Part shown: piece by piece, positions 5,193-45,174 of the stretch | How positions within the stretch are numbered: position 1 is the first letter of the stretch | Layout: every line of letters starts with the position of its first letter | From: Thermoanaerobaculia bacterium | GTDB lineage: Bacteria > Acidobacteriota > Thermoanaerobaculia > Multivoradales > UBA5704 | Direction of reading: 5' to 3' | Length of the DNA: 64,000 nt | Assembly: GCA_044226625.1 (NCBI GenBank) | Contig: JBGAGQ010000003.1 | Location: 156,190 to 220,189 of the forward strand | Notes under the pieces: generated by a model | What the model saw: only the letters and a program-made list of their open reading frames with translations | The model's database searches: none | Told to the model about the DNA's origin: nothing | Position numbers and translations under genes: made by a program

Positions 5193-6745
5193 GGCTCGGC
5201 TCCTGACTCTCTGAGATAGCGCTCGCGCAGATCGCCCTTGACCACCTTGCCGTACGGCGTGCGCGGCAGGGCCTCGACGAACACGAACACGCTCGGGTGC
5301 TTGTAACGGGCGAGGCGAGGGCCGAGGAACTCTACCAGCTCCTCCGCGGCCGGCCGGCGCTCTCCGGCGACCACGAACGCCACCCCCATCTCCCCCCACT
5401 TCTCGTCCGGCACTCCAACCACCGCGGCGTCGCGGACGTCCGGATGGAGCAGCAGCTCCCCCTCGATCTCGGCCGGATAGACGTTCACGCCGCCACGGAT
5501 CAGCAGGTCTTTCGCCCGCCCGGCGATCGTGTAGAAGCCGTCCGCATCGCGCCTCGCGAGATCGCCGGTGCGCCACCAGCCGTCCTCGGAGAGCGCCTCG
5601 GCGGTCGCCTCGGGGCGGTTCCAATAGCCGCGCGAGACGTGCGGCCCCCGAAGGTGGAGCTCGCCCACCTCGCCATCCGCCACCTCGTTGCCGTCCGCTC
5701 CGACCAGCCGCGCCTCGGCGAACAACAGCGGCTTGCCGATCGAGCCTGCCTTGGCGATCGACTCCTCGACCGTCATCGCGAAGCAGTTCACCCCGACTTC
5801 GGTGAGGCCGTACCCCTGTTTGAAGACGATGCCGCGCTCCTGGTAGCGGTCGATCAGGAAGCGCGGCAGAGGCGCGCCCCCCGAGACCAGCCAGCGCACC
5901 GAAGAGAGATCGGCGGCGGCGAACGCGGGATGTTCGGAGAGACGCTCCCACACCGTGGGCACGCCGAGCACCACCGTCGCGCGTTCGCGCTCGATCGTCC
6001 GCCAGACCTCCTCGGCGTCGAATCCCGCGTGGAGCACGATCGTGCCGCCGATCGTGACGATCGGAACAAGAAACGCGAACAGCCCGCCCGCGTGGTAGAG
6101 CGGCAGGAAGATCGGCGTCACGTCGTCCTCCCGAAGCTGCCAGGAGACGACCGTGTTGTAACCGTTCCAGAGCACCTGCCGGTGCGGGATCATCACGCCT
6201 TTCGGCCTGCCCGTGGTGCCGCTCGTGTAGAGCAGCGCCCACAGATCCTCGGACTCCAGCCGCGCGGCCTCGAACGGGCCTTCGGAGAGCGCCGCGATCT
6301 CCTCCGTCAACGCGAGATCCTCAGGCACCGCGCGCAGGTGGGTATCGAGCGCCACGCCGAGCCGAATCGGCAGGAGATCGCGTAGCTCCCTCGCGTGGGC
6401 CGCGTGATCGCCGTCGTAGAGAAGGACGGTCAGGCCGCTGTCCTCGACCAGGTGGGCGATCTCCCGCGCCGTGAGGCGCGTGCCGATCGGAACGAGCACG
6501 GTGCCCGCTTTCGCGCAGGCGAAGAAGACGTCGAGGAACTCGACACGGTTGCCGGAAAGAAGCCCGACGCGGTCGCCCTTGCGCAGGCCGAACCGTTCGC
6601 GGAACAGCTGCGCCATCGCGACGGCGCGCCGGTCGAGCGCCGCGTACGTGAGCCGCTCGGCCCCCGGCGCGGGCGGCACCGTGACGAGCGCGAGCTTCTC
6701 CGGCGTGAGCCGTGCGCGCTCCCCGAGGAGGTCTCCGGCGATCAC
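5189..6745 (-). CDS. AMP-binding acyl-CoA synthetase
   Basis: YTSGTTGRPKG, GYGLTE, RTGDL, PRTPYGKV. Confidence 0.92.
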   Translation of the reverse strand: MIAGDLLGERARLTPEKLALVTVPPAPGAERLTYAALDRRAVAMAQLFRERFGLRKGDRVGLLSGNRVEFLDVFFACAKAGTVLVPIGTRLTAREIAHLVEDSGLTVLLYDGDHAAHARELRDLLPIRLGVALDTHLRAVPEDLALTEEIAALSEGPFEAARLESEDLWALLYTSGTTGRPKGVMIPHRQVLWNGYNTVVSWQLREDDVTPIFLPLYHAGGLFAFLVPIVTIGGTIVLHAGFDAEEVWRTIERERATVVLGVPTVWERLSEHPAFAAADLSSVRWLVSGGAPLPRFLIDRYQERGIVFKQGYGLTEVGVNCFAMTVEESIAKAGSIGKPLLFAEARLVGADGNEVADGEVGELHLRGPHVSRGYWNRPEATAEALSEDGWWRTGDLARRDADGFYTIAGRAKDLLIRGGVNVYPAEIEGELLLHPDVRDAAVVGVPDEKWGEMGVAFVVAGERRPAAEELVEFLGPRLARYKHPSVFVFVEALPRTPYGKVVKGDLRERYLRESGAEP

Positions 6746-6746
6746 T

Positions 6747-7529
6747 TCAGCTCCCGATCACCAATCCGCCGTCGACCGAGAGCACCGCGCCGTGAACGAA
6801 GCTCGCCGCGTCCGAGGCGAGCCAGAGGTACGCCCCGGCGATCTCCTCGACCCGGCCGAGCCGCCCGAGCGGGGTCTTGCCCGCGATGCCGTCGATCACC
6901 TTCTGCGGCATCTTCTCGACCATCTCGGTCGAGATGTAGCCGGGCGCCACGGCGTTCACCCGGATGTTGTAGCGCCCCAGCTCGCGCGCCCAGGTGCGGG
7001 TCATCGCAATCACCCCCGCCTTGGTCGCCGAGTAGTTGGTCTGGCCGAAATTGCCGTACAGGCCGACCACCGAGCTCGCCGACAGGATCACCCCGCCGCC
7101 TCGCTCGATCATCCCGGGCACCACGGCCCGCGTGGGAAGGAAGACCCCACGCAGGTTGACGGCGAGCACGGCGTCGAAATCGGTCGTCGACATCGTGCCG
7201 AGCAGCGAGCCGTCCTTCCATTTCGCGAGCTGCGCGTCGCGCGTGATCCCGGCGTTGTTGATCAACACGTCGATCCGGCCGAAGCGCTCGAGAGCGCGCG
7301 CGACCCCTTCACCCACCGCCGCCTCGTCGGCGACGTCGACCGCGTCGAACAGCGCCTCCCCTCCCCCGCTTTCGATCTCCGCCGCCGCGGCCTCTCCCGC
7401 CTCGGCCGAGCGGTCCCACAGCACCACTTTCGCTCCTTCGGTCGCGAAGCGCCGAGCGGTCGCGCGGCCGATTCCCGCGGCGCCGCCGGTGACCAGCACG
7501 ACCCTGCCGCCAAGTCCCGTCTCGATCAT
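6747..7529 (-). CDS. SDR 3-oxoacyl reductase (FabG-like)
   Basis: TGGAAGIG, NNAGITRD, NYSATK (YxxxK), NAVAPG; start at MIETGLGG. Confidence 0.9.
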   Translation of the reverse strand: MIETGLGGRVVLVTGGAAGIGRATARRFATEGAKVVLWDRSAEAGEAAAAEIESGGGEALFDAVDVADEAAVGEGVARALERFGRIDVLINNAGITRDAQLAKWKDGSLLGTMSTTDFDAVLAVNLRGVFLPTRAVVPGMIERGGGVILSASSVVGLYGNFGQTNYSATKAGVIAMTRTWARELGRYNIRVNAVAPGYISTEMVEKMPQKVIDGIAGKTPLGRLGRVEEIAGAYLWLASDAASFVHGAVLSVDGGLVIGS

Positions 7530-33646: not shown

Positions 33647-34795
33647 ATGCCGATTCCTTCGCCGTTCCACGAGCGCACGTTCCCTTTGTGCACCAGCTAC
33701 CGCTGGAAGGACTGGGCGGGCTATTGCGCCGTGTCGAGCTACGACACTTCGCACGAACGCGAGTACTTCGCGTTCCGCGAGGCGGCCGGCCTGCTCGACG
33801 TCACTCCCCTCTACAAATATGAAGTGGTCTCGAAGCTCAAGGCCGGCCGGGTCGCCTACACCTGCTGGTGCGACGACGGCGGCAAGGTCGTCGACGACGG
33901 TACGGTCGCGCGCCTCGAAGACGAGCACTTCCGCGTCACCGCGGCCGATCCGTCGCTCCATTGGCTGACCGCGCTCTCCCGCGGCTACGACGTGCGAATC
34001 GAGGATTCGAGCACGCGGCTCGCGGCGCTCGCGCTTCAAGGGCCCCTGTCGCGCGACGTCCTGAAGAGCGCCACGACCGGCGCCGACCTCGACCGGCTCA
34101 AGTTCTTCGGCGTGACGCAAGCGAAGCTCGGCTCGATGCCGATCTGGATCAGCCGCACCGGCTATACCGGCGACCTCGGTTACGAGATCTGGGTCGATCG
34201 GGAGCAGGCGCTCCCCACCTGGGACGCGCTGATCGAGTCCGGCCGCCCGTACGGCATCGAGCCCGCCGGCCTCGACGCGCTCGACGTGGCGCGGGTGGAG
34301 GCGGGCTTCATCCTCCTCGGCAACGACTACTTCAGCGCGAAGAAAGTCGTGCTCGAATCGCGCAAGTCGACGCCGCACGAGCTCGGGTTCGGCTGGATGG
34401 TCGACCTCACCCGCGGCAACTTCATCGGCCGCGACGCGATCGAGGCGGAGACGAAGCGCGGCTCGATCTGGCAGCTCGTGGGGCTGGAGATCAGCTGGGA
34501 GGAGCTCGAGGCGCTCTACGCGAGCTTCGACCTGCCGCCGAGCCTGCCGGTCACCGCGCGGCGCGACGCCCTGCCGGTCTACGCCGAGGACGGCCGCCAG
34601 ATCGGCCAGGCGACCAGCCACACCTGGTCGCCGATCCTCAAGAAATATCTCGCGATCGCCTCGGTGCATCGCGGCTTCGAAACGCTCGGCGGCAAGCTCG
34701 CGATCGAGCACACCGTCGAGTACGAGCGGCGCCAGGTGACGGCGACGGTCGCGAAGCTCCCCTTCTACGACCCCGAAAGGAAGAAGAAGCCGTGA
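33647..34795 (+). CDS. GcvT-family (folate-binding) aminomethyltransferase-like protein with apparent internal deletion
   Basis: REAAGLLDVTPL, DDGTV, ALQGP, SRTGYTGDLGYEI, RVEAG, PFYDP. Confidence 0.88.
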   Translation: MPIPSPFHERTFPLCTSYRWKDWAGYCAVSSYDTSHEREYFAFREAAGLLDVTPLYKYEVVSKLKAGRVAYTCWCDDGGKVVDDGTVARLEDEHFRVTAADPSLHWLTALSRGYDVRIEDSSTRLAALALQGPLSRDVLKSATTGADLDRLKFFGVTQAKLGSMPIWISRTGYTGDLGYEIWVDREQALPTWDALIESGRPYGIEPAGLDALDVARVEAGFILLGNDYFSAKKVVLESRKSTPHELGFGWMVDLTRGNFIGRDAIEAETKRGSIWQLVGLEISWEELEALYASFDLPPSLPVTARRDALPVYAEDGRQIGQATSHTWSPILKKYLAIASVHRGFETLGGKLAIEHTVEYERRQVTATVAKLPFYDPERKKKP

Positions 34796-36348
34796 GCGCT
34801 TCGCGATACGACGCAATCGTCGTGGGGGCCGGCCACAATGGGCTGGTCTGCGCGGCCTATCTCGCCAAGGCGGGCCGGAAAGTGCTGGTCCTCGAGCGGC
34901 GCCATCAGGTGGGCGGCGCCACCACCAGCGAGGAGATCTACCCCGGCTTTACCTATACCTGCTGCTCCTACGTCGTCTCGCTGCTCCGGCCGTGGATCAT
35001 CCGCGACCTCGACCTGCCGCGTTTCGGCTACGAGATCCTGCCGCTCGAATCGACGATCACGCCGTTCCCCGACGGCCGGTATCTCATGCGCGACGCCGAT
35101 CCCGAGCGGACGCGCCGATCGATCGCGAAGTTCTCGCCCAAAGACGCCGAGGTCTACAAGCGGTTCGGCCAGGAGATGGCCGAGCTCGGCCGGCTGATCA
35201 AGCCGCTGATCGACGAGGCGGCGCCCGATCCCCTGTCCCGCGACCCGCGCGAGCTGCTGCGCCTCGGGCGCCTGGCGAAACAGCTGCGAGGCCAGGGCGA
35301 AGAGTGGCTCTACGCGAACGTCAAGATGATGACGATGAGCGCTGTCGACTTCCTCTCGGAGCGCTTCGAGAGCGAGGAGCTGATCGCGCCGATGGCGATC
35401 TCCGGGATCATCGGCACGTTCCTGGGCATCCGCTCGCCGGGCACCGCCTACGTGCTCCTCCACCACTACATGGGCGAGATCGACGGCAGCTTCCGCGCCT
35501 GGGGCCTCGCCGATTCCGCCCGCGCGCTCGGGGTGGAGATCCGCACCGAGGCGCCCGTCGCCCGGCTGCTGATGAAGGGCGGCAAGGCCGCGGGCGTGGT
35601 GCTCCAGAACGGCGACGAGATCCTGGCGAAGCAGGTGGTCTCCGGGCTCGATCCGAACCGCACGTTCCTGAAGCTCGTCGGCGAGGAGAACCTCGATCCG
35701 GAGATCGTCCAGCAGGTCAAGCGCTTCAAGATGCGCGGCTCCTCCGGCAAGGTGAACCTGGCGCTCGACGGACTGCCCGACCTCGCCTGCCTGCCGGGTC
35801 CGGGGCCGCATTTGACGGGCGGCATCACGATCGCGCCGTCGATCGATTACCTGGAGCGCGCCTACGACGAGGCGAAGTACGGCGCCTTCTCGAAGAAGCC
35901 GTTCATGGACATCCTGATCCCGTCGCTCACCGATCCGTCGGTGGCGCCGCCGGGCAAGCACACGATGTCGATTTTCGTCCAATACGCCCCCTATCACCTC
36001 AAGGAAGGCGCGGCCGACTGGCCGAACCAGCGCGAGGCGTTTGGCGACGCGGTCATCGACACGCTGTCGGAGTACATGCCGAACCTGAAGGAGCGCATCC
36101 TCCACCGGCAGGTGCTCTCGCCCTGGGATCTCGAACAGATCTACGGCCTCACCGAGGGGAACATCTTCCACGGTGAGCTGTCGCTCGAGCAGCTCGCGTT
36201 CCTCCGGCCGATGGCCGGCTGGAGCCGCTACAAGACTCCCGTCGACAACCTCTGGATGTGCGCGTCGGGGACCCACCCCGGCGGCGGCATCATGGGCGCG
36301 CCCGGCGCGCTCTGCGCGCGGACCATGCTCGGCAAGAGGGCGGTCTGA
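34792..36348 (+). CDS. CrtI/phytoene-dehydrogenase-like FAD oxidoreductase 1
   Basis: GTGA overlap; GAGHNGL, LERRHQVGGA, GNIFHGEL, GTHPGGGIMG. Confidence 0.9.
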   Translation: MSASRYDAIVVGAGHNGLVCAAYLAKAGRKVLVLERRHQVGGATTSEEIYPGFTYTCCSYVVSLLRPWIIRDLDLPRFGYEILPLESTITPFPDGRYLMRDADPERTRRSIAKFSPKDAEVYKRFGQEMAELGRLIKPLIDEAAPDPLSRDPRELLRLGRLAKQLRGQGEEWLYANVKMMTMSAVDFLSERFESEELIAPMAISGIIGTFLGIRSPGTAYVLLHHYMGEIDGSFRAWGLADSARALGVEIRTEAPVARLLMKGGKAAGVVLQNGDEILAKQVVSGLDPNRTFLKLVGEENLDPEIVQQVKRFKMRGSSGKVNLALDGLPDLACLPGPGPHLTGGITIAPSIDYLERAYDEAKYGAFSKKPFMDILIPSLTDPSVAPPGKHTMSIFVQYAPYHLKEGAADWPNQREAFGDAVIDTLSEYMPNLKERILHRQVLSPWDLEQIYGLTEGNIFHGELSLEQLAFLRPMAGWSRYKTPVDNLWMCASGTHPGGGIMGAPGALCARTMLGKRAV

Positions 36349-37907
36349 TGAGCCGGTCCGGAGCGTTCGACGCGATCGTCCTCGGAGCCGGTCCGAACGG
36401 CCTCGCCGCCGCGACCCGCCTGGCCCAGAAAGGGCGGAAGGTGTTGGTCGTCGAGCGCGCCGACGCCGTCGGCGGCCTTTCGGCGCGGCACGAGTTCCAC
36501 CCGGGCTACGCCGTCTCCGGCATCCTTCACGACGAAGGTTTGACCACACGCGCAACGGCGGAGACGCTCGGCCTCGGCGGCCACGGCCTCAAATTCCGCA
36601 AAGCCCCGGCGACCTTCCTCGCGGAGGCGGACGGAGCGGGGCTCCTTCTCCCCGGTGATGACGCGGGCGACGCCGCGGCGATCGGTCGGCGATCGGCGAA
36701 GGACGGCGAGAGCTACGCGGCGATGCGCGCGTTTCTCACGCGGATCACGCCGCTCGTCGCCTCGATTCTGTCCGAGCCTCCGCCGCCGATCTCCCCGACC
36801 TCCGCGGGCGACCTCTGGCAGATCGCCAAGCGCGGTCTGTCGCTCTTCCGGATCGACAAGAAGGACCTCCTTGAGCTCGCGCGCGTGGCGCCGATGTGCG
36901 TGGCGGACTATCTGAACGAACGGTTCGAGACGCCGCTCCTCGTCGAAGCGTTCGCGGCCCCGGCGGTCGCCGCCACCTGGTCCGGCCCCTGGTCGGCCGG
37001 GACGACGACGAACTTCCTGCTCCGCGAATGCGCGGGCGGCGAGGCGATCCAGGGGGGCCCGCCAGCCCTCATCGCGGCGCTCCTCGCCGCGGCCCGCGCG
37101 GCGGGTGCGGAGATCCGTACGGGCGCCGAGGTCGCGCGCATCCGGTTGGAAGGCGGGAAAGTCCGCGGCGTGGCGCTCGCTTCCGGCGAGACGATCGACG
37201 CGGGCGTCGTCCTCTCCTCCGCCGATCCGAAGCGGACGATGCTCGACCTGCTCGCGCCGGGCACCCTGCCGCTCAAGATCGAAGAGGAGTTCCTGAACGT
37301 CCGCGCCCGCGGCACGGCGGCGAAGGTCCACCTCGCCCTCTCGGGTCCGCTCGAATGGAAGGGTGATGCCGGTGATTCCGGCAGTGCCGAGCAGATCCGC
37401 ATCGGCGGCGGCCACGTCGACGACCTGGAGCGCGCCTTCGACGCGATCAAGTATCGACGTTTCTCCGAGCGGCCGAACCTGGAGATCCGCATCCCCACGC
37501 TCGCCGATCCGAGCCTCGCGCCCGCCGGCCACCACACCGCCTCGATCCTCGCGAGCTTCGCCCCACGCAATCTCGACGGCGGCTGGACCGACGCCGCGCG
37601 GGAGAGCTTCGGAGACGCGGTCCTCGCCGTCCTCGAGCGCCACGCCCCGAACCTCCGCCACGTCCTCGTCGCGCGGGAAGTCCTCACCCCCGCCGACCTC
37701 GAATCGCGTTTCGCCCTCTCCGGAGGCCAACTCCACCACGGAGAAATCGCCCTCGACCAGCTCCTCGTCATGCGCCCCGGCCCCTCCGCGCCGCGCTACG
37801 CGACGACGGTCCCCGGGCTGTATCTGGGAGGAGCCGGCAGTCACCCCGGCGGCGGCGTACGGATCACGGCGGGGGTGCTGGCGGCGGAGGCGGTGCTGGG
37901 GGGTTGA
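36348..37907 (+). CDS. CrtI/phytoene-dehydrogenase-like FAD oxidoreductase 2
   Basis: TGATG overlap; GAGPNGL, GGQLHHGE, GSHPGGG. Confidence 0.9.
   Translation: MSRSGAFDAIVLGAGPNGLAAATRLAQKGRKVLVVERADAVGGLSARHEFHPGYAVSGILHDEGLTTRATAETLGLGGHGLKFRKAPATFLAEADGAGLLLPGDDAGDAAAIGRRSAKDGESYAAMRAFLTRITPLVASILSEPPPPISPTSAGDLWQIAKRGLSLFRIDKKDLLELARVAPMCVADYLNERFETPLLVEAFAAPAVAATWSGPWSAGTTTNFLLRECAGGEAIQGGPPALIAALLAAARAAGAEIRTGAEVARIRLEGGKVRGVALASGETIDAGVVLSSADPKRTMLDLLAPGTLPLKIEEEFLNVRARGTAAKVHLALSGPLEWKGDAGDSGSAEQIRIGGGHVDDLERAFDAIKYRRFSERPNLEIRIPTLADPSLAPAGHHTASILASFAPRNLDGGWTDAARESFGDAVLAVLERHAPNLRHVLVAREVLTPADLESRFALSGGQLHHGEIALDQLLVMRPGPSAPRYATTVPGLYLGGAGSHPGGGVRITAGVLAAEAVLGG
37847..37895 (+). 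repeat. Direct repeat copy 1 (3' end of oxidoreductase 2)
   Basis: CGGCGGCGGCGnnnGGATCACGGCGGGGGTGYTGGCGGCGGAGGCGGTG recurs at 41127-41175. Confidence 0.9.
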
Positions 37908-37982
37908 GCGGATCGGGCAGGTGGCTGGTTGAGGCAGATCAGCCCACACCAGAGTGTTAGAATCCACCCGAAGAGGTGGATT

Positions 37983-38150
37983 ATGACCATCACACTAGAG
38001 CTGTTCACCGAACAAGAGAAGCACCTACGGACTGGGGCCGTCCAGCACGACCCGCAAATCGTGCGCGAGGTTCTGCTCCAAGCGATTGATTCACCCACTT
38101 TGTTGGATGAAGCGGTTTCCCGGGCCGGGATCTACGCCGATCATCCCTGA
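37983..38150 (+). pseudogene. Antitoxin-like remnant
   Basis: GAGGTGG RBS, TGTTAGAAT extended -10; MTITLEL... and ...DEAVSRAGIYADHP resemble the two ends of a VapB-type antitoxin with the middle missing. Confidence 0.45.
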
Positions 38151-38178
38151 CCTCCGTTGCATGCAAATGTATTGATTA

Positions 38179-38913
38179 GTGGCAAGCTTGGGGATAATGA
38201 ATACCGTCTCGCTGGCAAAAGCGCTCAACACGATTAGAAGCAACGGATGGGTGCTAGTAGAGTGCGAGGAAACCCCCGCAGGCCTCCTAGATCTTGCCTG
38301 CTCGTTTGGAGAACCCGTCGCTGCACCTGGGCGCCCCATCGTTCAGGTACTCCGCCCGAACTTCGAGTGCACTGCGCGGCCAAACACCACGAGCGCAATA
38401 CACGGCCTGCGGGCCTTCCCTCCTCATACCGACTTCGCGCATTGGCCAGTTCCACCGCGCCTCCTCTTCTTCCGCAGCATCGGCAGGCCTTCAAAGACAC
38501 CTACACTACTCCTTAGTTTTTCCAAGGTTCGGTTTGATGAAAGGTTCGGTGGGGATTGGCGCCGTGCTGTTTGGCAGGTCAGGAGGATTCGGCGCAACTT
38601 TCTCTGTTCCGCCGCCTTCGAAACCGCTAGGGGAGAGGGCTACCGGTGGGACTCAGATGTGATGATTCCCTATGGCGAGTTAGCTGAACGAGTTGCTCCT
38701 GAATTCTCGCGCGCTCTTGAGGTCGCACTCCACCGCGACAGCGAGGCGATTCACTGGAAGACGCGAAGCGCCGCACTTATTGTTGACAATTGGCGTACTC
38801 TTCACGCTAGAACAGCTGTGGCAAGCGTGGACAATGATCGCGCACTTGAGCGGATTGCCATTATGGAGATACAATTAGGTGAAGCCCAATCCCCAATCTC
38901 TTTGGACACATGA
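38179..38913 (+). CDS. TauD/TfdA-family Fe(II)/2-oxoglutarate dioxygenase
   Basis: PPHTD (HxD) and LIVDNWRTLHAR (distal His + Arg); AT-richer DNA; start may be ATG 38197. Confidence 0.8.
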   Translation: MASLGIMNTVSLAKALNTIRSNGWVLVECEETPAGLLDLACSFGEPVAAPGRPIVQVLRPNFECTARPNTTSAIHGLRAFPPHTDFAHWPVPPRLLFFRSIGRPSKTPTLLLSFSKVRFDERFGGDWRRAVWQVRRIRRNFLCSAAFETARGEGYRWDSDVMIPYGELAERVAPEFSRALEVALHRDSEAIHWKTRSAALIVDNWRTLHARTAVASVDNDRALERIAIMEIQLGEAQSPISLDT

Positions 38914-39838
38914 TGTGCTTTGGAGCAAGGCTCGCTCATTCATGGAGCGAGCGCTTGCTGCGCCTCGAGACAGTGACCTCTTTCCTTTTTGGGCATCTCT
39001 AGCTCTCGAGTTGCTCGCACGCTCTGCGCTGGCGTATGTATCACCAATTCTTCTCGCTGATACAGCTGATCCCGATGGCCGAAACCTGCTCCACGCGCTG
39101 GGCTTCGAGCCCAAGGTCAAAGCGTATGTGCCTAGATCGATTGTGGCGAACGATGTACTTACGCGGTGCGAGCAATTAGTTCCTGAATTCACTAAAGATA
39201 TCGAGAATTTCTGCCGCGGCTTCACCATTAAGCGAAATGAGGAACTTCACAGCGGTGGCACTCCATTCTCTTCCCTCGCCAGCACAACTTGGCTGCCACG
39301 CTTTTATGAATCCGCGAGAGTTCTCTTGGGCTTTCAAGGAATGGAGCTTGTCGATTTTGTCGGCAGCGACGAAGCCAAGGCTGCGGAGGTCATGCTGAAG
39401 GCAGTCGCAGACGAGGCAGCCAAGAGTGTTCGGAAACTGATCAAAGCCCACTCAGAAGTTTGGAATGGTAAGAAACAGGAAGAGCGCGAACAGCTCGAAG
39501 AAGCCGCAAAGAATCACGCCCACCCCTGGAGAGGCCATGTGGTCTCATGTCCTTCGTGCGGATCACCGGCCTTATTGACGGGCGAGGAAGTAAAGCGGCA
39601 GCCCCCAGTCCTTGAAAATAATGAGCTCGTGGTTCGAAGGGTAGTTCTGCCCACAGAGTTGAAGTGTTTAGCCTGTGGATTGGGTATCCACAGTCATAGT
39701 CAGCTTTATGCGGCAGACTTGGGCGGCCAGTTCACGAGCACCCTCAGATTTGATCCTGTCCACTACTACGCGGTAAGCGATGATGACGGGGACGACGATG
39801 ACGAGTCTTACGAAGACTGCGAGTACAACAACGAATAG
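38879..39838 (+). CDS. HEPN-like protein with C-terminal zinc ribbon and acidic tail
   Basis: ALELLAR helix, RNEELH (RxxxxH), CPSC...CLAC, tail DDDGDDDDESYEDCEYNNE; overlaps the TauD stop. Confidence 0.7.
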   Translation: MKPNPQSLWTHDVLWSKARSFMERALAAPRDSDLFPFWASLALELLARSALAYVSPILLADTADPDGRNLLHALGFEPKVKAYVPRSIVANDVLTRCEQLVPEFTKDIENFCRGFTIKRNEELHSGGTPFSSLASTTWLPRFYESARVLLGFQGMELVDFVGSDEAKAAEVMLKAVADEAAKSVRKLIKAHSEVWNGKKQEEREQLEEAAKNHAHPWRGHVVSCPSCGSPALLTGEEVKRQPPVLENNELVVRRVVLPTELKCLACGLGIHSHSQLYAADLGGQFTSTLRFDPVHYYAVSDDDGDDDDESYEDCEYNNE

Positions 39839-39980
39839 GTGTTTTCCTCTGCGGTAGAAGTTCGATCCACCTCTGCCGGCGATTGGAACTAGGCGCGAGC
39901 GCTCAGGTGATACGGTCGGCCCGAAGACTCATGCGCGGACCAACTCGAGATCAAATGCACCTTCTTGGTAGGCCTTAAGC

Positions 39981-40375
39981 ATGGCATTGGCGAAGCGCGA
40001 GGTATCCGTCTCCTTGGATGAGGATCTCGTCGCCCAACTCGAGCGCTAAGGGCAGGGTGTGTCCGCACAGGTCAATGCGGCGGTACGAGCTAACCTTGAA
40101 TCTCGTCGTCGCCACAAACTGCTCGAAGAGTCTCTCGACCACGTTGATGAGTCGGCCTCCTCGGATGAGCCGCTGCGTCGTACTCGACGCTGGCGCCCTG
40201 GAGGCTTCGGCCTCCAGCCAATCCGGTAATAGAGAGGTCTGGAGGTCCGAGCAGTGCTCCGTGCTGCGGTGCGTCTTCTTGTTCCCACCGTGATTCTCGC
40301 CGAGCTATATCGAGGACCTCGGCACAACCCGATGGTGGACGCCGAGCGATCGGCATTGAGCCTCCCGTCATCTGA
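39981..40375 (+). pseudogene. Decayed antitoxin (RHH-like) + PIN toxin pair
   Basis: MALAKREVSVSLDEDLVAQLER then in-frame TAA (40047); MSRCVVLDAGAL from 40165 and out-of-frame VPTVILAELYRG. Confidence 0.6.
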
Positions 40376-40407
40376 ATGCCGGTAGAGTTGGTAAAGGAGT
40401 GGTGATC

Positions 40408-40587
40408 ATGTCCCGAATCGACCCTATCGTCGAAGAAATCCACGCCTTACGCGAAGAGATTGCGCGCGCGGCGGGCTACGATCTTGACAGAATTCTGGAG
40501 GCCGCCAGAGACCGGCAGGCGGTGGCGGGTGTGCAAACGGTACGGCTTGTCCCCAAAACGCCCGAGTACGTCGAGAAGGCGTCGTGA
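40408..40587 (+). CDS. Small antitoxin-like protein (DPIVEEI type)
   Basis: AAGGAG RBS; DPIVEEIHALREEIARAAGYDL; preceded by a PPVI*MPVEL remnant resembling a PIN-toxin C-terminus. Confidence 0.55.
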   Translation: MSRIDPIVEEIHALREEIARAAGYDLDRILEAARDRQAVAGVQTVRLVPKTPEYVEKAS

Positions 40588-40679
40588 GTCCCGCTGACGA
40601 CGATCTTGCTTAAGCTTTCTGCCGAACAAGAGCAACGGTTGTAAGCCGGCGCCGCCGAGCAGGATGCAAAGACCGTCCG

Positions 40680-41126: not shown

Positions 41127-41175
41127 CGGCGGCGGCGAGAGGATCACGGCGGGGGTGTTGGCGGCGGAGGCGGTG
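41127..41175 (+). repeat. Direct repeat copy 2
   Basis: Matches 37847-37895 with 4 mismatches. Confidence 0.9.
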
Positions 41176-41223: not shown

Positions 41224-41532
41224 ATGGCGATGGCAAGCCTGGAAGCCGTGCTCGAAGCAGCCCAGACGCTCTCCCACGATGAGCGGCGTCGGCTCATGAT
41301 CGAGCTGGATGCTCTGGAAGCGATGGAGCGTCCGGCGGTCCCAGCGGGCCGAGAACCCCTCGCCGCGCTTCGGGCTCTGTCCGGTTCGGCGCACGCCGCC
41401 GACCACAATCCAGCCAACGTCGACCCCGTAGAGGAGGCTCGACGACAGTCGATCTTAGCCAGTGGCCACCCTTCGGAGAAGGAAGTTCTCGAATTCATCG
41501 AGTACGCGGCTGACACCCAGGGCTGGAAGTGA
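41224..41532 (+). CDS. Putative antitoxin with DUF3018-like C-terminus
   Basis: EEARRQS...EVLEFIEYAAD..W; GTGA overlap with the toxin. Confidence 0.6.
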   Translation: MAMASLEAVLEAAQTLSHDERRRLMIELDALEAMERPAVPAGREPLAALRALSGSAHAADHNPANVDPVEEARRQSILASGHPSEKEVLEFIEYAADTQGWK

Positions 41533-41858
41533 AGCGGGGCTCCATCGTCGTCGCGGCAGCCAAAGGGGCATACACCGGAAAACCTCGCCCGGCGCTCGTC
41601 ATTCAATCGGACCTGTTCAATCCCACGCACCAAAGCGTCACGATCTGTCCGATAACTTCCGAATGGGTCGACGCGCCTCTTTTCCGTATTCCTCTGCCCC
41701 CCGGCGAACGCACCGGCCTTCGCAGTCCTTCCCAGATCATGATCGACAAGATTGCGAGCATTCCCCGATCCGCAATCACGGCGGAGATTGGCAGTTGCGA
41801 TCACGCCGAACTTCAAGCCGCCGAGGACGCCCTGCGCTATTGGCTAGGACTCGGCTGA
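41529..41858 (+). CDS. mazF: PemK/MazF family toxin
   Basis: MKRGSIV, GKPRPALVIQSD, ICPITS, TGL..PSQIMIDKI. Confidence 0.92.
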   Translation: MKRGSIVVAAAKGAYTGKPRPALVIQSDLFNPTHQSVTICPITSEWVDAPLFRIPLPPGERTGLRSPSQIMIDKIASIPRSAITAEIGSCDHAELQAAEDALRYWLGLG

Positions 41859-41909: not shown

Positions 41910-44573
41910 TCACTCTTCCGTGAGCACCACCATCGGCGAAACCCGGGCGGCGCGATGGGAGGGCAGCAGGCAGGAGGCGAGGCAGACCGCGCCGAGGAGG
42001 CCGGCCGCTGCGGCGAAGGCGGCTAGGTGCAGAGGCGGCACCCCGAAGAGGACCGTTTGCATGGCCCGGCCGGTCAGCCAGGCTCCGAGGACGCCGAGCG
42101 CCGTGCCCGCCGCGAGCAGGCGCAGGGCGAGCGAGAGGAATTGGCCGCGCACCTGCTCCGGCCGAGCCCCCAACGCCATCCGCAGGCCGATCTCGCGGCG
42201 GCGCTGCATTACGGCGTAGCTCAGCACCCCGTACGTGCCCACCGCGGTGAGCAGCATGGCGATGCCGGCGAAGAGGGCGGCCAGCAGCGTCGGCGAGCGG
42301 CGGGCGATCAGGCTGTCGGCGATGCGGGTCTCCATCGTCCGCAGATCGTAGACCGGCAGCTCGGGATCGATCCGGCGGACGGCTTGACGTAGCGCCGGCG
42401 CGAGCGATTCCTCGGGCAGGCTCGAGCGGACGACCAGGTAGATGCTGTGATCCATCCGGTAGCCGAAAGGGTAATAGATCGCGCCCTGGGCTTGGTCCTC
42501 GACCAGCCCCGCTTGTTTCACGGGACCGACCACCCCCACCACGGTGTAAGCCTCGGCGGCGTTTTCCTCGCCTGCGCCCTCGAAGATCTTTTGGCCGAGC
42601 GCGCCGCCGCGCGGCCAGTAGCGGCGCGCGAAATCCTCGTCGATCACGCAGACCCGCTCGGCGCGGCGGGAGTCCGCTGCCGTGAGGAGGCGTCCTTCCC
42701 GTAGCGAAAAGCCCAGGGCGGAGAAGAAGTCGCCGCCCACGCCGTAGGAGTAGAACCCGTGCGGCGCCTCTCCGGGTTGCGGCCGATGCCCCTCGACCGT
42801 GGCCGCGCTCTTGTTGCTGATGCCGCTGAGCGGCACGTTGGTGGCGAATCCCGCGGCCTGCACGCCCGGCTGGCGGCCGAGCTCCGCGGTGAGCCGCTCG
42901 GTGACCGCGAGCAGGTCCGGTCGCCGCGGATAGGTCTGCACCGGCAGGACCAACCGCCCGCTCAAAACGTGCTCGGGCCGGAATCCGGGAGAGACAGTCA
43001 TCACCTTCTGGAGGCTGAGCCCCAGCAGGCCCGCTCCCGCGAGCAACACGAAAGCCAGGGCGATCTGGGTGACGATGAACGCGTGGCGCAGCCGCTGCGC
43101 CGCCCGGCCGGCCGTGGTGCCGCGCGATTCGACTTGCAGGCCGGGAGCCGCGGCGTTGCGCAGGCTCAACCAAGCGACGGTAAGACCGAGCGCGATCCCC
43201 ACGCCGAGCGAGCCCGCCAGGGCGATCAGCGCCAGCCGGGCGTCGAAAACGACGTGCGATCCCAGCGGCAATCGATCGACTCCGAGCAGAGCCAGGAGGC
43301 GGATGCCGCCGGCTCCGGCGGCCAGTCCGAGGAGGCCTCCGGCGAGCGCCAGGAGCAGGCTCTCCACCACGGCTCCGCTGACCACGTGCCGCCGGCCGGC
43401 CCCAATCGCCTGCCGCACCGCGAGCTCCTTGACCCGGCCGCTGGCGCGGATGAGCAGCAGGTTGACCAGGTTGACGCCGCCGATCAGGAGCAGGAAGAGC
43501 GCTCCGGCCTGGGTCAGCAGCAGCGTGGGACGGACCGCCGCCACGTGGTCCGCCCGCAGGGGCACCACGAGCGAGCGGAAACCGGCGTCGGCCATCATCC
43601 TAGCTTCCGGGCCGTTCACCTCCGCGGCGGCATTGCGGGCGTCGATCTGCGCCTGGGCCTCCTCCAACGTAGCCCCGGGCGCGAGCCGGGCGATCATGCG
43701 CGCGGTCCCGGAATGCCGATTCTGGGGAGCACGCTCTTCGGGGCTCGACGCGAGCGGGAGGTAGATCTGGGTCTGGGACGACAGAAAGCTGAAGGTGGGT
43801 GGCAGGATCCCGACCACGGTCCTGGAGATCGCGTTGACGCGGATGCTGCGGCCGATCACGCCGGGATCGGCGCCCAGGCGCTGCCGCCAGTAGCCGTCCG
43901 TGAGGATGGCCGAGTCATTTTTCCCGCTCAGGGTCTCCGCCTCCGTGAAGACGCGGCCCCTTACCGGGCCAAGCCCCAGGGTGGAGAAGAAGTCGGGAGA
44001 GACCCGCGTGACCGGCACCTGCTCCGTCGTGCCCGCCTCCCCCACGACCGCCGTGGCGTCGCGATAGACCGCCAGTCCCGAGAAGGCCGGAATCTGCCCC
44101 CGGCGCTCGTAATAATTCGCCAGCGAACAGCCGTCGTTCGGCACGCCGGCTTTGGGGTAGGTGTTGTATACGCTCACCAGACGGCCGGCGGCGGGGAAAG
44201 GCAGCGGCCGGAGCAGCACCGCGTCGACCACCGCGAAGAGGGTCAGGTTGGCGCCCAGGCAGAGCGCCAGGGTGGCCAGCGCGGTGGCCGTGAAGCCCGG
44301 CGTCTTGCGCAGCAGGCGGGCGGCGTAGCGCAGGTCTTGGCGGAGGTCGTCGAACAGGCGCAGGCCGCTCGCCTCGCGGCAGTCCTGCTTGACGTTGTCG
44401 AGGCTGCCGAATTCCTGGCGAGCGCGGCGCGCCGCCTCCGTCGGCGGCACGCCGGAGAGCACGAGGTCCTCCGTGTAACGCTCGACGTGGAAACGCATCT
44501 CTTCGTCCATGTCGTCCTCGAAGCGACCACGACGGCGGAGCGTCTGAAACGTGGCGAGCAGCCTTCTGGCCAT
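41910..44573 (-). CDS. ADOP duplicated ABC permease with prefix domain
   Basis: DEEMRFH...ARQEFG prefix, QDLRYAARLLRKTPGF, RRREIGLRMALGA; coupled to padR. Confidence 0.93.
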   Translation of the reverse strand: MARRLLATFQTLRRRGRFEDDMDEEMRFHVERYTEDLVLSGVPPTEAARRARQEFGSLDNVKQDCREASGLRLFDDLRQDLRYAARLLRKTPGFTATALATLALCLGANLTLFAVVDAVLLRPLPFPAAGRLVSVYNTYPKAGVPNDGCSLANYYERRGQIPAFSGLAVYRDATAVVGEAGTTEQVPVTRVSPDFFSTLGLGPVRGRVFTEAETLSGKNDSAILTDGYWRQRLGADPGVIGRSIRVNAISRTVVGILPPTFSFLSSQTQIYLPLASSPEERAPQNRHSGTARMIARLAPGATLEEAQAQIDARNAAAEVNGPEARMMADAGFRSLVVPLRADHVAAVRPTLLLTQAGALFLLLIGGVNLVNLLLIRASGRVKELAVRQAIGAGRRHVVSGAVVESLLLALAGGLLGLAAGAGGIRLLALLGVDRLPLGSHVVFDARLALIALAGSLGVGIALGLTVAWLSLRNAAAPGLQVESRGTTAGRAAQRLRHAFIVTQIALAFVLLAGAGLLGLSLQKVMTVSPGFRPEHVLSGRLVLPVQTYPRRPDLLAVTERLTAELGRQPGVQAAGFATNVPLSGISNKSAATVEGHRPQPGEAPHGFYSYGVGGDFFSALGFSLREGRLLTAADSRRAERVCVIDEDFARRYWPRGGALGQKIFEGAGEENAAEAYTVVGVVGPVKQAGLVEDQAQGAIYYPFGYRMDHSIYLVVRSSLPEESLAPALRQAVRRIDPELPVYDLRTMETRIADSLIARRSPTLLAALFAGIAMLLTAVGTYGVLSYAVMQRRREIGLRMALGARPEQVRGQFLSLALRLLAAGTALGVLGAWLTGRAMQTVLFGVPPLHLAAFAAAAGLLGAVCLASCLLPSHRAARVSPMVVLTEE

Positions 44574-44914
44574 CACGCCTCCCCGGGCTCGGCGCTCAGG
44601 GCCGCGGCGATCGCCGACGCCAGCCGGTTCCAGCCCGCCGTCTCCTCCTCCAGGCGCCGCCGCCCGGCCTCGGACAGGGTGTAGTACTTCGCTTTGCGGT
44701 TGTTCTCGCTCTGACCCCATTCGGCCACGATCAGCCCCTGGTGCTCCAACCGGTACAGCGCCGGATACAGAGACCCCTGGGGGATGTCCAGCGCGTCGCC
44801 CGAGATCTGACGGATGCGCAACAGCACTCCGTATCCGTGCAGCGGCTCGAGCGACACCGCCTTGAGGGTCAGCATGTCGAGGGTACCGGGAAGCAGGTTC
44901 GCGGTGTCGTTCAT
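44573..44914 (-). CDS. PadR family regulator (acidobacterial type)
   Basis: LLPGTLDML, LHGYG, GSLYPALYRLE, WGQSENNRKAKYY. Confidence 0.95.
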   Translation of the reverse strand: MNDTANLLPGTLDMLTLKAVSLEPLHGYGVLLRIRQISGDALDIPQGSLYPALYRLEHQGLIVAEWGQSENNRKAKYYTLSEAGRRRLEEETAGWNRLASAIAAALSAEPGEA

Positions 44915-44921
44915 GGCGTCT

Positions 44922-44972
44922 CTCCTTGCCTGACTAGGAGTGTGCCGCGATCTCTCCTAGCCTGTCAAGGAG
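44922..44972. promoter_or_regulatory. Two palindromic putative PadR operators
   Basis: CTCCTTG-N5-CTAGGAG (44922-44940) and CTCCTAG-N5-CAAGGAG (44954-44972). Confidence 0.7.
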
Positions 44973-45174
44973 AGAGGCGAGCGTCTGCTCGATTGATCAC
45001 GATCCCACGCGGAGTGCGACCGCCTTCCCGGTCGCCGGCGTTTAGGATCCGCCCCAGAGTCTCGACAGCGGAATGGAGCGGTACACGATCACGCCGGACG
45101 GGCGCTGTCCCTCGTAACGAGCGACAGCTCCTCCGCGCCGTAATTCCTAGAACTCCTTCGATAAAGGAATCCCC

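Follow-up and report, generated by a model that had tools for sequence, protein, structure and literature searches.

Two overlapping genes, here called g1 and g2, lie within a stretch of 64,000 nucleotides from the genome of a Thermoanaerobaculia bacterium (GenBank assembly GCA_044226625.1, contig JBGAGQ010000003.1, positions 156,190 to 220,189 of the forward strand; this whole stretch is the window, in whose coordinates all positions are given). They form a self-contained, horizontally mobile module that pairs a small Fe(II)/2-oxoglutarate (2OG) oxygenase with a protein built of a HEPN domain, a zinc ribbon and an acidic tail. The chances are about even that the module is a HEPN RNase effector controlled by the upstream oxygenase, either a toxin-antitoxin (TA) module resembling type VII or an abortive-infection module. 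In such an arrangement the HEPN RNase g2 would be the effector and the oxygenase g1 its controlling partner, by analogy with the enzymatic antitoxins MntA or TomB. Many immune and toxin systems have a HEPN RNase as their effector, Cas13, Csm6, RNase L, HepT and the Abi proteins among them, and how each RNase is kept silent is a key question for every family.

The g2 family is large and occurs in many phyla without annotation, and the oxygenase that obligately accompanies it has an intact catalytic site. A word-index search recovered 171 homologues of g2 at E ≤ 1e-3, and a profile search of public data clustered at 50% identity recovered 2134 cluster representatives at E ≤ 1e-3, 1322 at 1e-10 and 554 at 1e-30. 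If the oxygenase controls the RNase, hydroxylation would be a new toxin-gating chemistry with oxygen, iron and central-carbon status as new inputs, two "hypothetical" or misleadingly metabolic genes on conjugative plasmids would gain a name, and a compact, ligand-dependent RNase switch would become available for tool building.

Both genes are intact open reading frames (ORFs) on the + strand and share 35 bases (38879-38913), in agreement with the first-pass annotation, which had been made from the letters of the window and had reported two overlapping intact genes. Their parts are located as follows.

38179-38913, + strand: g1, ORF of 244 amino acids with a GTG start, predicted small clavaminate-synthase/TauD-class Fe(II)/2OG oxygenase
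38425-38433, + strand: metal ligands of g1 in the HxD motif H83-T84-D85, translation checked
38803-38853, + strand: distal histidine of g1 (H209, the histidine of DNWRTLHAR, codon at 38803) and conserved arginines (R211, R221, R225), translation checked
38865-38869, + strand: GGAGA, likely ribosome-binding site of g2
38879-39838, + strand: g2, ORF of 319 amino acids with a GTG start, predicted order HEPN domain, helical linker, four-cysteine zinc ribbon, acidic tail
38891-39358, + strand: predicted HEPN domain of g2, residues ~5-160, with helices 11-27 and 34-54, an insert at 55-105, and helices 106-124 and 135-152
39008-39022, + strand: Ex3[KR] motif of g2, E44-L-L-A-R48
39233-39250, + strand: Rx4H motif of g2, R119-N-E-E-L-H124
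39536-39751, + strand: predicted beta-rich zinc-ribbon domain of g2, with C224/C227 and C263/C266 and strands within 220-291
39785-39835, + strand: predicted disordered acidic tail of g2, DGDDDDESYEDCEYNNE, ending Y-N-N-E

The GTG at 38879 is preferred as the start of g2 because GGAGA lies 9 bases before it, within the 3' end of g1, and because W9, L14 and K17, which are conserved throughout the family, all lie upstream of the start in the public gene call of g2 (P0001), a shorter call of 298 amino acids. The true start of g1 may be an alternative ATG at 38197, which would give a protein of 238 amino acids. A scan for promoters and terminators at the locus gave no signal above shuffled expectation.

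The match of g1 to the Pfam family TauD (PF02668) is marginal, with 28.3 bits against a cut-off of 27 (E 2.1e-06) and a best stretch that covers only residues 199-226. Among 40 homologues from related loci, H83, D85, T109, N204, H209, R211, R221 and R225 are invariant in every sequence, and R156 and D158 are nearly so. By analogy of spacing with TauD, R221 presumably contacts the C5 carboxylate of 2OG and R225 an anionic group of the substrate, and on the same ground T109 is taken to be the 2OG-binding threonine. An AlphaFold2 (AF2) model of g1 was obtained with a predicted local distance difference test (pLDDT) value of 92.2 and a predicted template-modelling (pTM) score of 0.88. A Foldseek search with this model found 263 matches in the Protein Data Bank (PDB) at E ≤ 0.001 and identified a double-stranded beta-helix fold of the clavaminate-synthase type. 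Clavaminate synthase (1drt, 1.5e-11) was the top match and the asparagine oxygenase AsnO (2og7, 4.9e-11) the second, with IsnB/PvcB, TmpA, KDO1, BBOX1 and CsiD among the further ones; E values ran from 1.5e-11 to ~3e-09 and TM scores, normalised to the query, were ~0.65-0.70. A search of the PDB with the sequence of g1 returned nothing below E 0.01.

By its model and signature, then, g1 belongs to the clavaminate-synthase/TauD class as a small Fe(II)/2OG oxygenase with its catalytic residues in place; relatives with solved structures use amino acids and comparable small anionic molecules as substrates. With clavaminate synthase, AsnO, KDO1, OrfP and PvcB g1 shares the predicted fold, the HxD...H triad and the conserved threonine and arginine, whereas it differs from the clavaminate-synthase-like/TauD enzymes in being shorter (~240 versus 255-385 amino acids), only 13-21% identical and always paired with the HEPN gene. 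It also constitutes a distinct subfamily: across 401 genomes of the phylum its orthologues appear at E ≤ 1e-56 and the next TauD-like genes at E ≥ 1e-13, and the strong matches, three in all, stand beside g2 in every case.

The AF2 model of g2 (pLDDT 92.6; model and residue conservation both derive from a 97-sequence alignment) places two long helices, residues 163-213, as a linker between the N-terminal helical domain and the zinc ribbon. When the model was compared with 48,161 chains by VIA-align, the best ten were all HEPN or HEPN-type domains. The matches include 2hsb_A (Z 12.6, root-mean-square deviation (rmsd) 3.1, 122 residues aligned), 3o10_A (Z 10.6, rmsd 3.4, 122 aligned), 1ufb_A (Z 9.9, rmsd 3.1, 115 aligned) and 5yep_B, which is HepT SO_3166 (Z 9.9, rmsd 3.2, 113 aligned). 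VIA-align Z values below ~13 can, for helical bundles, reflect merely a common arrangement; they are not decisive, and the motifs that define HEPN domains were therefore checked.

As described in PMC3710099, the HEPN active site consists of an Rx4-6H motif that closes helix 3 and whose arginine is followed by a polar residue, which is N, D or H, and helix 2 carries a conserved acidic residue, typically within Ex3[KR]. The positions in g2 agree with these rules as given there. The Rx4H motif closes helix 3 (106-124), R119, N120 and H124 being each present in 97/97 sequences, and the Ex3[KR] motif lies in helix 2 (34-54), with E44 in 97/97 and either R (93 sequences) or K (4) at position 48. Because of the fold matches and the conservation of R119-N120-x-x-L-H124 and E44-x3-R48, the N-terminal domain of g2 is placed, on fold and motifs, in the HEPN superfamily with a complete RNase signature. 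g2 is predicted to be a HEPN-type, metal-independent RNase.

The putative zinc ribbon is beta-rich, and its cysteines are conserved in 97/97 (C227, C263 and C266) or 96/97 sequences (C224). The sequence hints for a ribbon were weak (Lar_restr_allev in Pfam, E 0.04; 2k5c in the PDB, E 0.15), a PDB search with the g2 sequence returned nothing below E 0.01, and a profile search of the PDB gave a LIM zinc-finger match at E 1.5 only. NCBIfam and PHROGs yielded no useful match for g1 or g2, and the ESM Atlas yielded unnamed clusters only, 30/30 without a common Pfam family. Beyond the ribbon, residues 304-319 have a pLDDT of less than 50. Averaged over the 97 sequences of the family, the final 30 residues are 30% acidic and 4% basic, and they lead to a consensus [YF]xN[ED] at or near the C-terminus: the protein ends exactly in NE or ND in 65/97 sequences and has N[ED] within its last 6 residues in 87/97, with an aromatic residue usually two positions before the motif. 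Translation bore out the motifs that the first-pass annotation had quoted (HTD, DNWRTLHAR, RNEELH, two CxxC pairs and the acidic tail), and the data given above uphold its calls of a 2OG-Fe(II) enzyme, a HEPN fold, and a zinc ribbon with an acidic tail.

The association of the two genes is strongly conserved. A genome scan with the single protein confirmed no relative, and an alignment-based, profile-guided scan of one genome per species gave 76 loci spread over many phyla. Represented are Pseudomonadota, Bacteroidota, Acidobacteriota, Planctomycetota, Verrucomicrobiota, Chloroflexota, Cyanobacteria, Actinomycetes and Myxococcota, as well as Leptospira, a Saccharibacteria bin and Cohnella. A homologue of g1 was found directly upstream of g2 and on the same strand in 71 of the 76 loci by tblastn. 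With a hidden Markov model (HMM) and the addition of 5 viral and 3 plasmid loci, the gene was found directly upstream in 79/84, and the pairing noticed by the first-pass annotation at one locus is thus conserved across phyla. The five misses include one locus with just 132 bases of upstream sequence and one with a transposase gene at the position of g1. The pair was also present in 4/4 further genomes found by genome search. In a locus on an Agrobacterium pAt plasmid (L084, 5316-6009) the g1 HMM matches with 116 bits upstream of the g2 homologue, at a place where the PLSDB gene table has a gap, so that the oxygenase gene is either unlisted or a pseudogene in that record.

The commonest junction between the two genes is a 4-base overlap, and g2 is translationally coupled to g1. 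When 750 flanking ORFs were clustered, only the g1 and g2 clusters occurred in more than 3 loci and no third conserved gene emerged; the module consists of two genes. One metagenomic protein of 483 amino acids (P0243) joins both: residues 50-221 of g1 align to its positions 6-177 with an hhalign probability of 99.8%, and the g2 profile matches positions 176-483. This protein could be a real fusion or the product of a frameshift at the usual 4-base overlap, and it is the sole fusion found, a search for longer forms of 560-2000 amino acids having returned none.

A physical association of the two proteins is likewise predicted. Compared with 0.01 for the best of 3 controls, the complex of g1 with g2 attained 0.67, a mark that 58/80 solved complexes and 2/110 mismatched pairs reach (a calibration that is only roughly valid here, the alignments being our own). 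Between runs, at least 89% of the contacts agree, with a partner pLDDT of at least 81. The predicted interface is formed by residues 4-27, 53-55 and 153-163 of g2 and residues 50, 89-91, 124-132, 139-150 and 165-168 of g1; on the g2 side these belong to the opening helix of the HEPN domain, to the end of its final helix and to the beginning of the linker, not to the tail. g1 and g2 are thus predicted to form a stable complex through the N-terminal HEPN helix. The interface residues W9 and K17 are not lost in homologues of g2 that have no oxygenase, a test that does not discriminate. That g1 and g2 are chance neighbours with no functional link is next to impossible: the same-strand adjacency in 79/84 loci of many phyla, the common 4-base overlap and the fused P0243 contradict it, as does the contrast between the complex score and its controls.

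The same model bears on an unlikely alternative, in which the pair is a conflict system gated by a signal or metabolite. Here g1 would make, destroy or sense a small molecule such as an amino acid, a nucleobase or a nucleotide derivative, and the HEPN-zinc-ribbon protein would respond to that molecule or to the conformational state of the oxygenase, g2 itself staying unmodified. The closest folds to g1 (clavaminate synthase, AsnO, PvcB/IsnB, TmpA, KDO1, BBOX and CsiD) are all small-molecule enzymes, the invariant R211, R221 and R225 together with the nearly invariant R156 and D158 would suit an anionic small substrate, and in the predicted complex the two proteins lie stably side by side, with neither active site in the interface. 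A small-molecule role is at odds with the neighbourhood, where no transporter, ligase or other metabolic gene is conserved beside the pair, and it leaves unexplained both the conserved tail motif and the loss of that motif in 3/4 homologues without an oxygenase.

The tail is what would tie g2 to the chemistry of g1 under control by the oxygenase. N[ED] followed by 0-2 residues closes the protein in 71/79 g2 homologues associated with g1 versus 1/4 of those without it (Fisher p = 0.0066, from small numbers uncorrected for relatedness). The sole homologue that keeps the motif without g1 has a transposase gene inserted upstream, and the exceptions among g1-associated tails include several in which D replaces N. 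The loci L032, L053 and L066, which lack an upstream oxygenase gene and where the g2 match lies at ~6000-6980 in each, have tails ending in YDEPD, YYDDDR and NDYRD; a shared alternative partner was sought there and none was found, the upstream "ORFs" having no Pfam family and no similarity to g1. Since a disordered linker ends in a conserved motif that is kept together with the oxygenase, the tail is suggested to be a substrate, a pseudo-substrate or a docking element of g1.

The enzyme class of g1 contains Asn/Asp beta-hydroxylases, and AsnO is among its top fold matches; SyrP is another member of the Asp/Asn type. By analogy with such AsnO/SyrP-type enzymes, g1 may hydroxylate the conserved [YF]xN[ED] tail of g2, the modification being a beta-hydroxylation of Asn or Asp. 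This is the weakest step of the proposed mechanism, put forward because of the co-occurrence of tail and oxygenase and the analogy within the enzyme class, and because of nothing else. Silence of the RNase would in that case depend on the availability of O2, Fe(II) and 2OG, and the RNase would be released when their supply or the synthesis of new oxygenase fails, for example upon phage takeover or plasmid loss. In its most specific form, which appears rather unlikely, the module would be the first TA or anti-phage system controlled by protein hydroxylation, with a dedicated oxygenase that continuously hydroxylates the conserved Asn (or Asp) in the tail of a HEPN RNase; a shortage of O2, Fe(II), 2OG or fresh oxygenase would set the RNase off.

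The conserved [YF]xN[ED] behind a disordered linker, and its co-occurrence with the oxygenase, would also fit a biosynthetic pair in which the oxygenase builds a modified residue on the tail of g2 that is later released, in the manner of ribosomally synthesized and post-translationally modified peptides (RiPPs) or of "pearlins", the rest of g2 being a recognition scaffold. This is very improbable. No protease, ligase or exporter is conserved nearby, a scaffold of 300 residues with a fully conserved RNase signature is left unexplained, and the idea comes from analogy alone.

The genomic distribution of the pair is that of a mobile element. The module occurs in 4/41 related genomes and in 1/7 other genomes of the genus. 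The g2 family was found on 53 plasmid records, 32 of them conjugative, 5 mobilizable and 16 non-mobilizable, and RefSeq annotates the plasmid pair as "TauD/TfdA family dioxygenase" (the g1 homologue) and "hypothetical protein". On an Acinetobacter plasmid the pair lies between BrnT/BrnA, an insertion sequence (IS), a recombinase and RelE/ParE. Members also occur on 5 IMG/VR contigs, and among the 49 ORFs that flank them there are matches to tail, tail-sheath, tape-measure, head-closure, integrase and repressor families. The pair is read as a horizontally mobile module because of its patchy distribution, its presence on plasmids and on prophage-like contigs, and its variable site with TA genes.

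For each of the 76 genomic loci the closest two ORFs on either side were tallied, which gave 249 neighbours with crude ORF calls. Pfam matches among them include 9 Phage_integrase, 2 resolvase and 5 transposase hits along with YhaV and SieB, and the PADLOC matches include DRT reverse transcriptases, AbiEii, PbeA, BrxH, CapP, Bil, PD-T7-3 and PDC-S15/S19/S45/S68. Being a tally without a background, it is no more than suggestive of defence-island enrichment.

On a Shinella plasmid the pair stands among the DNA-repair genes Ku, exonuclease III, SRAP, DinB and ImuA. Such a setting would suit a holoenzyme that processes or modifies RNA, in which the HEPN-zinc-ribbon protein binds or cleaves a specific RNA (e.g., tRNA) whose end, or one of whose bases, is oxidised by the oxygenase, the pair having an accessory stress or repair function. 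The zinc ribbon and the HEPN domain are both nucleic-acid-handling modules and the complex is predicted to be stable, and yet we regard this possibility as quite unlikely: no nucleic-acid substrates appear among the solved TauD/clavaminate-synthase-like relatives in the matches listed, and the patchy occurrence, the plasmids, the prophage-like contigs and the TA and IS neighbours fit selfish or defence modules better.

Several observations weigh against a HEPN RNase held in check by g1, in addition to the caution attached to the Z values. No HEPN family of Pfam matches g2 at E ≤ 1, and hhalign gave a probability of 0.7% between the g2 profile and a 28-sequence HepT-like (PF01934) profile, the one HEPN family profile compared; these two results rule out g2 as a HepT-like (PF01934) member. 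A Foldseek search of the PDB with the g2 model gave no match at E ≤ 0.001, the best being the HEPN domain of sacsin at E 0.25. HEPN domains lead these weak rows; the HEPN assignment is based on VIA-align and on the motifs. The known enzymes structurally closest to g1 have small molecules as substrates, such as free or carrier-bound amino acids, and not proteins. The predicted interface contains neither the Rx4H motif nor the metal ligands nor the tail, and no substrate is placed in the active site. The homologues at L032, L053 and L066 keep R119, N120 and H124 without an oxygenase, which sits poorly with g2 being lethal on its own. A search of 50,697 deposited phage genomes gave no match. Many of the neighbours have housekeeping functions, and the tally that contains them has no background rate. 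Finally, toxicity, RNase activity, neutralisation, phage protection and hydroxylation are all predictions, made from sequence, models and analogy. The mechanism put forward by the first-pass annotation, in which the oxygenase would hydroxylate the HEPN protein or make or sense a modified nucleotide and the acidic tail may autoinhibit, is a reasonable hypothesis that the tail motif and the predicted complex make more specific.

Among described systems, the module would work most like HepT/MntA, in which an upstream enzyme neutralises the RNase by covalent modification (PMC7641770, PMC8610362). Both are two-gene operons with an upstream enzyme and a downstream HEPN protein bearing Rx4H; HepT is moreover a fold match of g2 (5yep_B), and the architecture, with the enzyme upstream, the HEPN protein downstream and the two coupled, fits type VII. 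The module nevertheless fails the defining tests of HepT/MntA, having no MNT partner and no profile match. Its partner is a 2OG/Fe(II) oxygenase instead of an MNT nucleotidyltransferase, and g2, at ~310 amino acids, has an added helical linker, zinc ribbon and acidic tail and no profile similarity to PF01934. HepT-like (PF01934) genes are themselves very abundant in the lineage, with matches in 28/31 genomes and as many as 12 in a single one; the genome from which the window comes has 2.

A precedent for an oxidation-based, oxygen-responsive module is Hha/TomB, an oxygen-dependent type VII TA system in which the antitoxin inactivates the toxin by oxidation (PMC8610362). The proteins are unrelated to g1 and g2, TomB promotes cysteine oxidation and is no 2OG oxygenase, and Hha is not an RNase. 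The HEPN abortive-infection and defence proteins AbiV, AbiU2, AbiD/F, AbiJ and ApeA are carried on mobile elements (PMC3710099, Table 1). These stand-alone proteins and the prophage HepS resemble g2 as HEPN RNase effectors on mobile elements, and HepS (9oik_A) is also a fold match of g2 (Z 7.0, rmsd 4.6, 114 aligned); for none of the stand-alone HEPN Abi or defence proteins has an oxygenase partner been described. PMC3710099 mentions no such partner, the count in it being 0 for dioxygenase, 2OG, TauD and oxoglutarate. None of the families of PADLOC-DB v2.0.0 (2023) matches g1 or g2 at E ≤ 1, and a full-text literature search, with subscription journals and the supplementary tables of defence screens outside it, found no paper on a HEPN-oxygenase pairing. 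The statement of the first-pass annotation that it knew of no described system with this pairing is in accord with these results and with the lack of a HEPN Pfam match.

Regulatory protein hydroxylases that couple the activity of a target to O2, Fe and 2OG include FIH and PHD in animals and the bacterial ribosomal and EF-Tu hydroxylases. The logic proposed for g1 would be the same as that of these hydroxylases, which differ in belonging to other 2OG-oxygenase classes (JmjC, PHD). We know of no link of regulatory protein hydroxylases to toxin or defence modules. For a HEPN effector with an oxygenase as its enzymatic partner no described precedent was found, and the control chemistry would be new if the hydroxylation is real; the module would then be the bacterial analogue of oxygen sensing by FIH/PHD, connected to an effector that degrades RNA.

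At its own locus the module differs in composition from its surroundings. The GC content of g1 is 0.566 and that of g2 0.533, against 0.697 (34000-37900) and 0.702 (42000-45000), or ~0.70, in the flanks; the foreign composition noted by the first-pass annotation is evident from these values. The further features of the region are given below.

37923-40404, no strand assigned: stretch with the module that has no counterpart at the same site in the same-genus genomes G001 and G003
37985-38150, strand not given: antitoxin-like small ORF (MTITLELFTEQEK...), with an internal deletion relative to a longer counterpart in G001 and G003
41224-41858, strand not given: MazE-like/MazF (PemK) pair, apparently intact, with a 4-base overlap, 1.4 kb downstream of the module (Pfam MazE-like 6e-05, PemK_toxin 4e-23)

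The left flank matches all 5 same-genus genomes searched (G001-G004 and G006) up to window position ~37908-37922. In G001 (contig C135) and G003 (contig C9) it is followed by ~10 bases and then by sequence that matches the window at 40405-40588, and the sequence matching from 40405 onward consists of small TA-like genes. About 2.5 kb that carry the module are thus missing at this site in both genomes, and G001 has its own copy of the module on a different contig. The region of the window is a mosaic of small cassettes, comprising the antitoxin-like ORF, the module, apparent remnants and the MazE-like/MazF pair.

The first-pass annotation had placed the two genes among TA pseudogenes, which holds in part. 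The antitoxin-like ORF at 37985-38150 is indeed deleted internally, with ~96 alignment columns lost relative to its counterpart in G001 and G003, whereas the MazE-like/MazF pair looks intact. In the window the g1-g2 module follows the antitoxin-like ORF; in G001 and G003 the longer counterpart is followed by a sequence whose beginning resembles that of a PIN (VapC) toxin.

A direct repeat of 49 nt, 92% identical between its copies at 37847-37895 and 41127-41175, brackets a stretch of 3.28 kb that contains the module and several small TA-like ORFs. Its presence suggests that a segment was inserted at this hotspot or that recombination took place there. A search for terminal repeats or att-like sites around the module itself found none, and the short inverted repeats seen there are probably due to chance. 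The first copy of the 49-nt repeat is the 3' end of an oxidoreductase-like gene that ends at 37907. This gene (36258-37907) and an adjacent one (33868-36348) are long + strand ORFs with dinucleotide-binding-like N-termini (VVGAGHNGL and VLGAGPNGL), by appearance putative paralogous FAD-dependent oxidoreductases, and the ORF pair has 83-84% DNA identity in 5/5 same-genus genomes searched.

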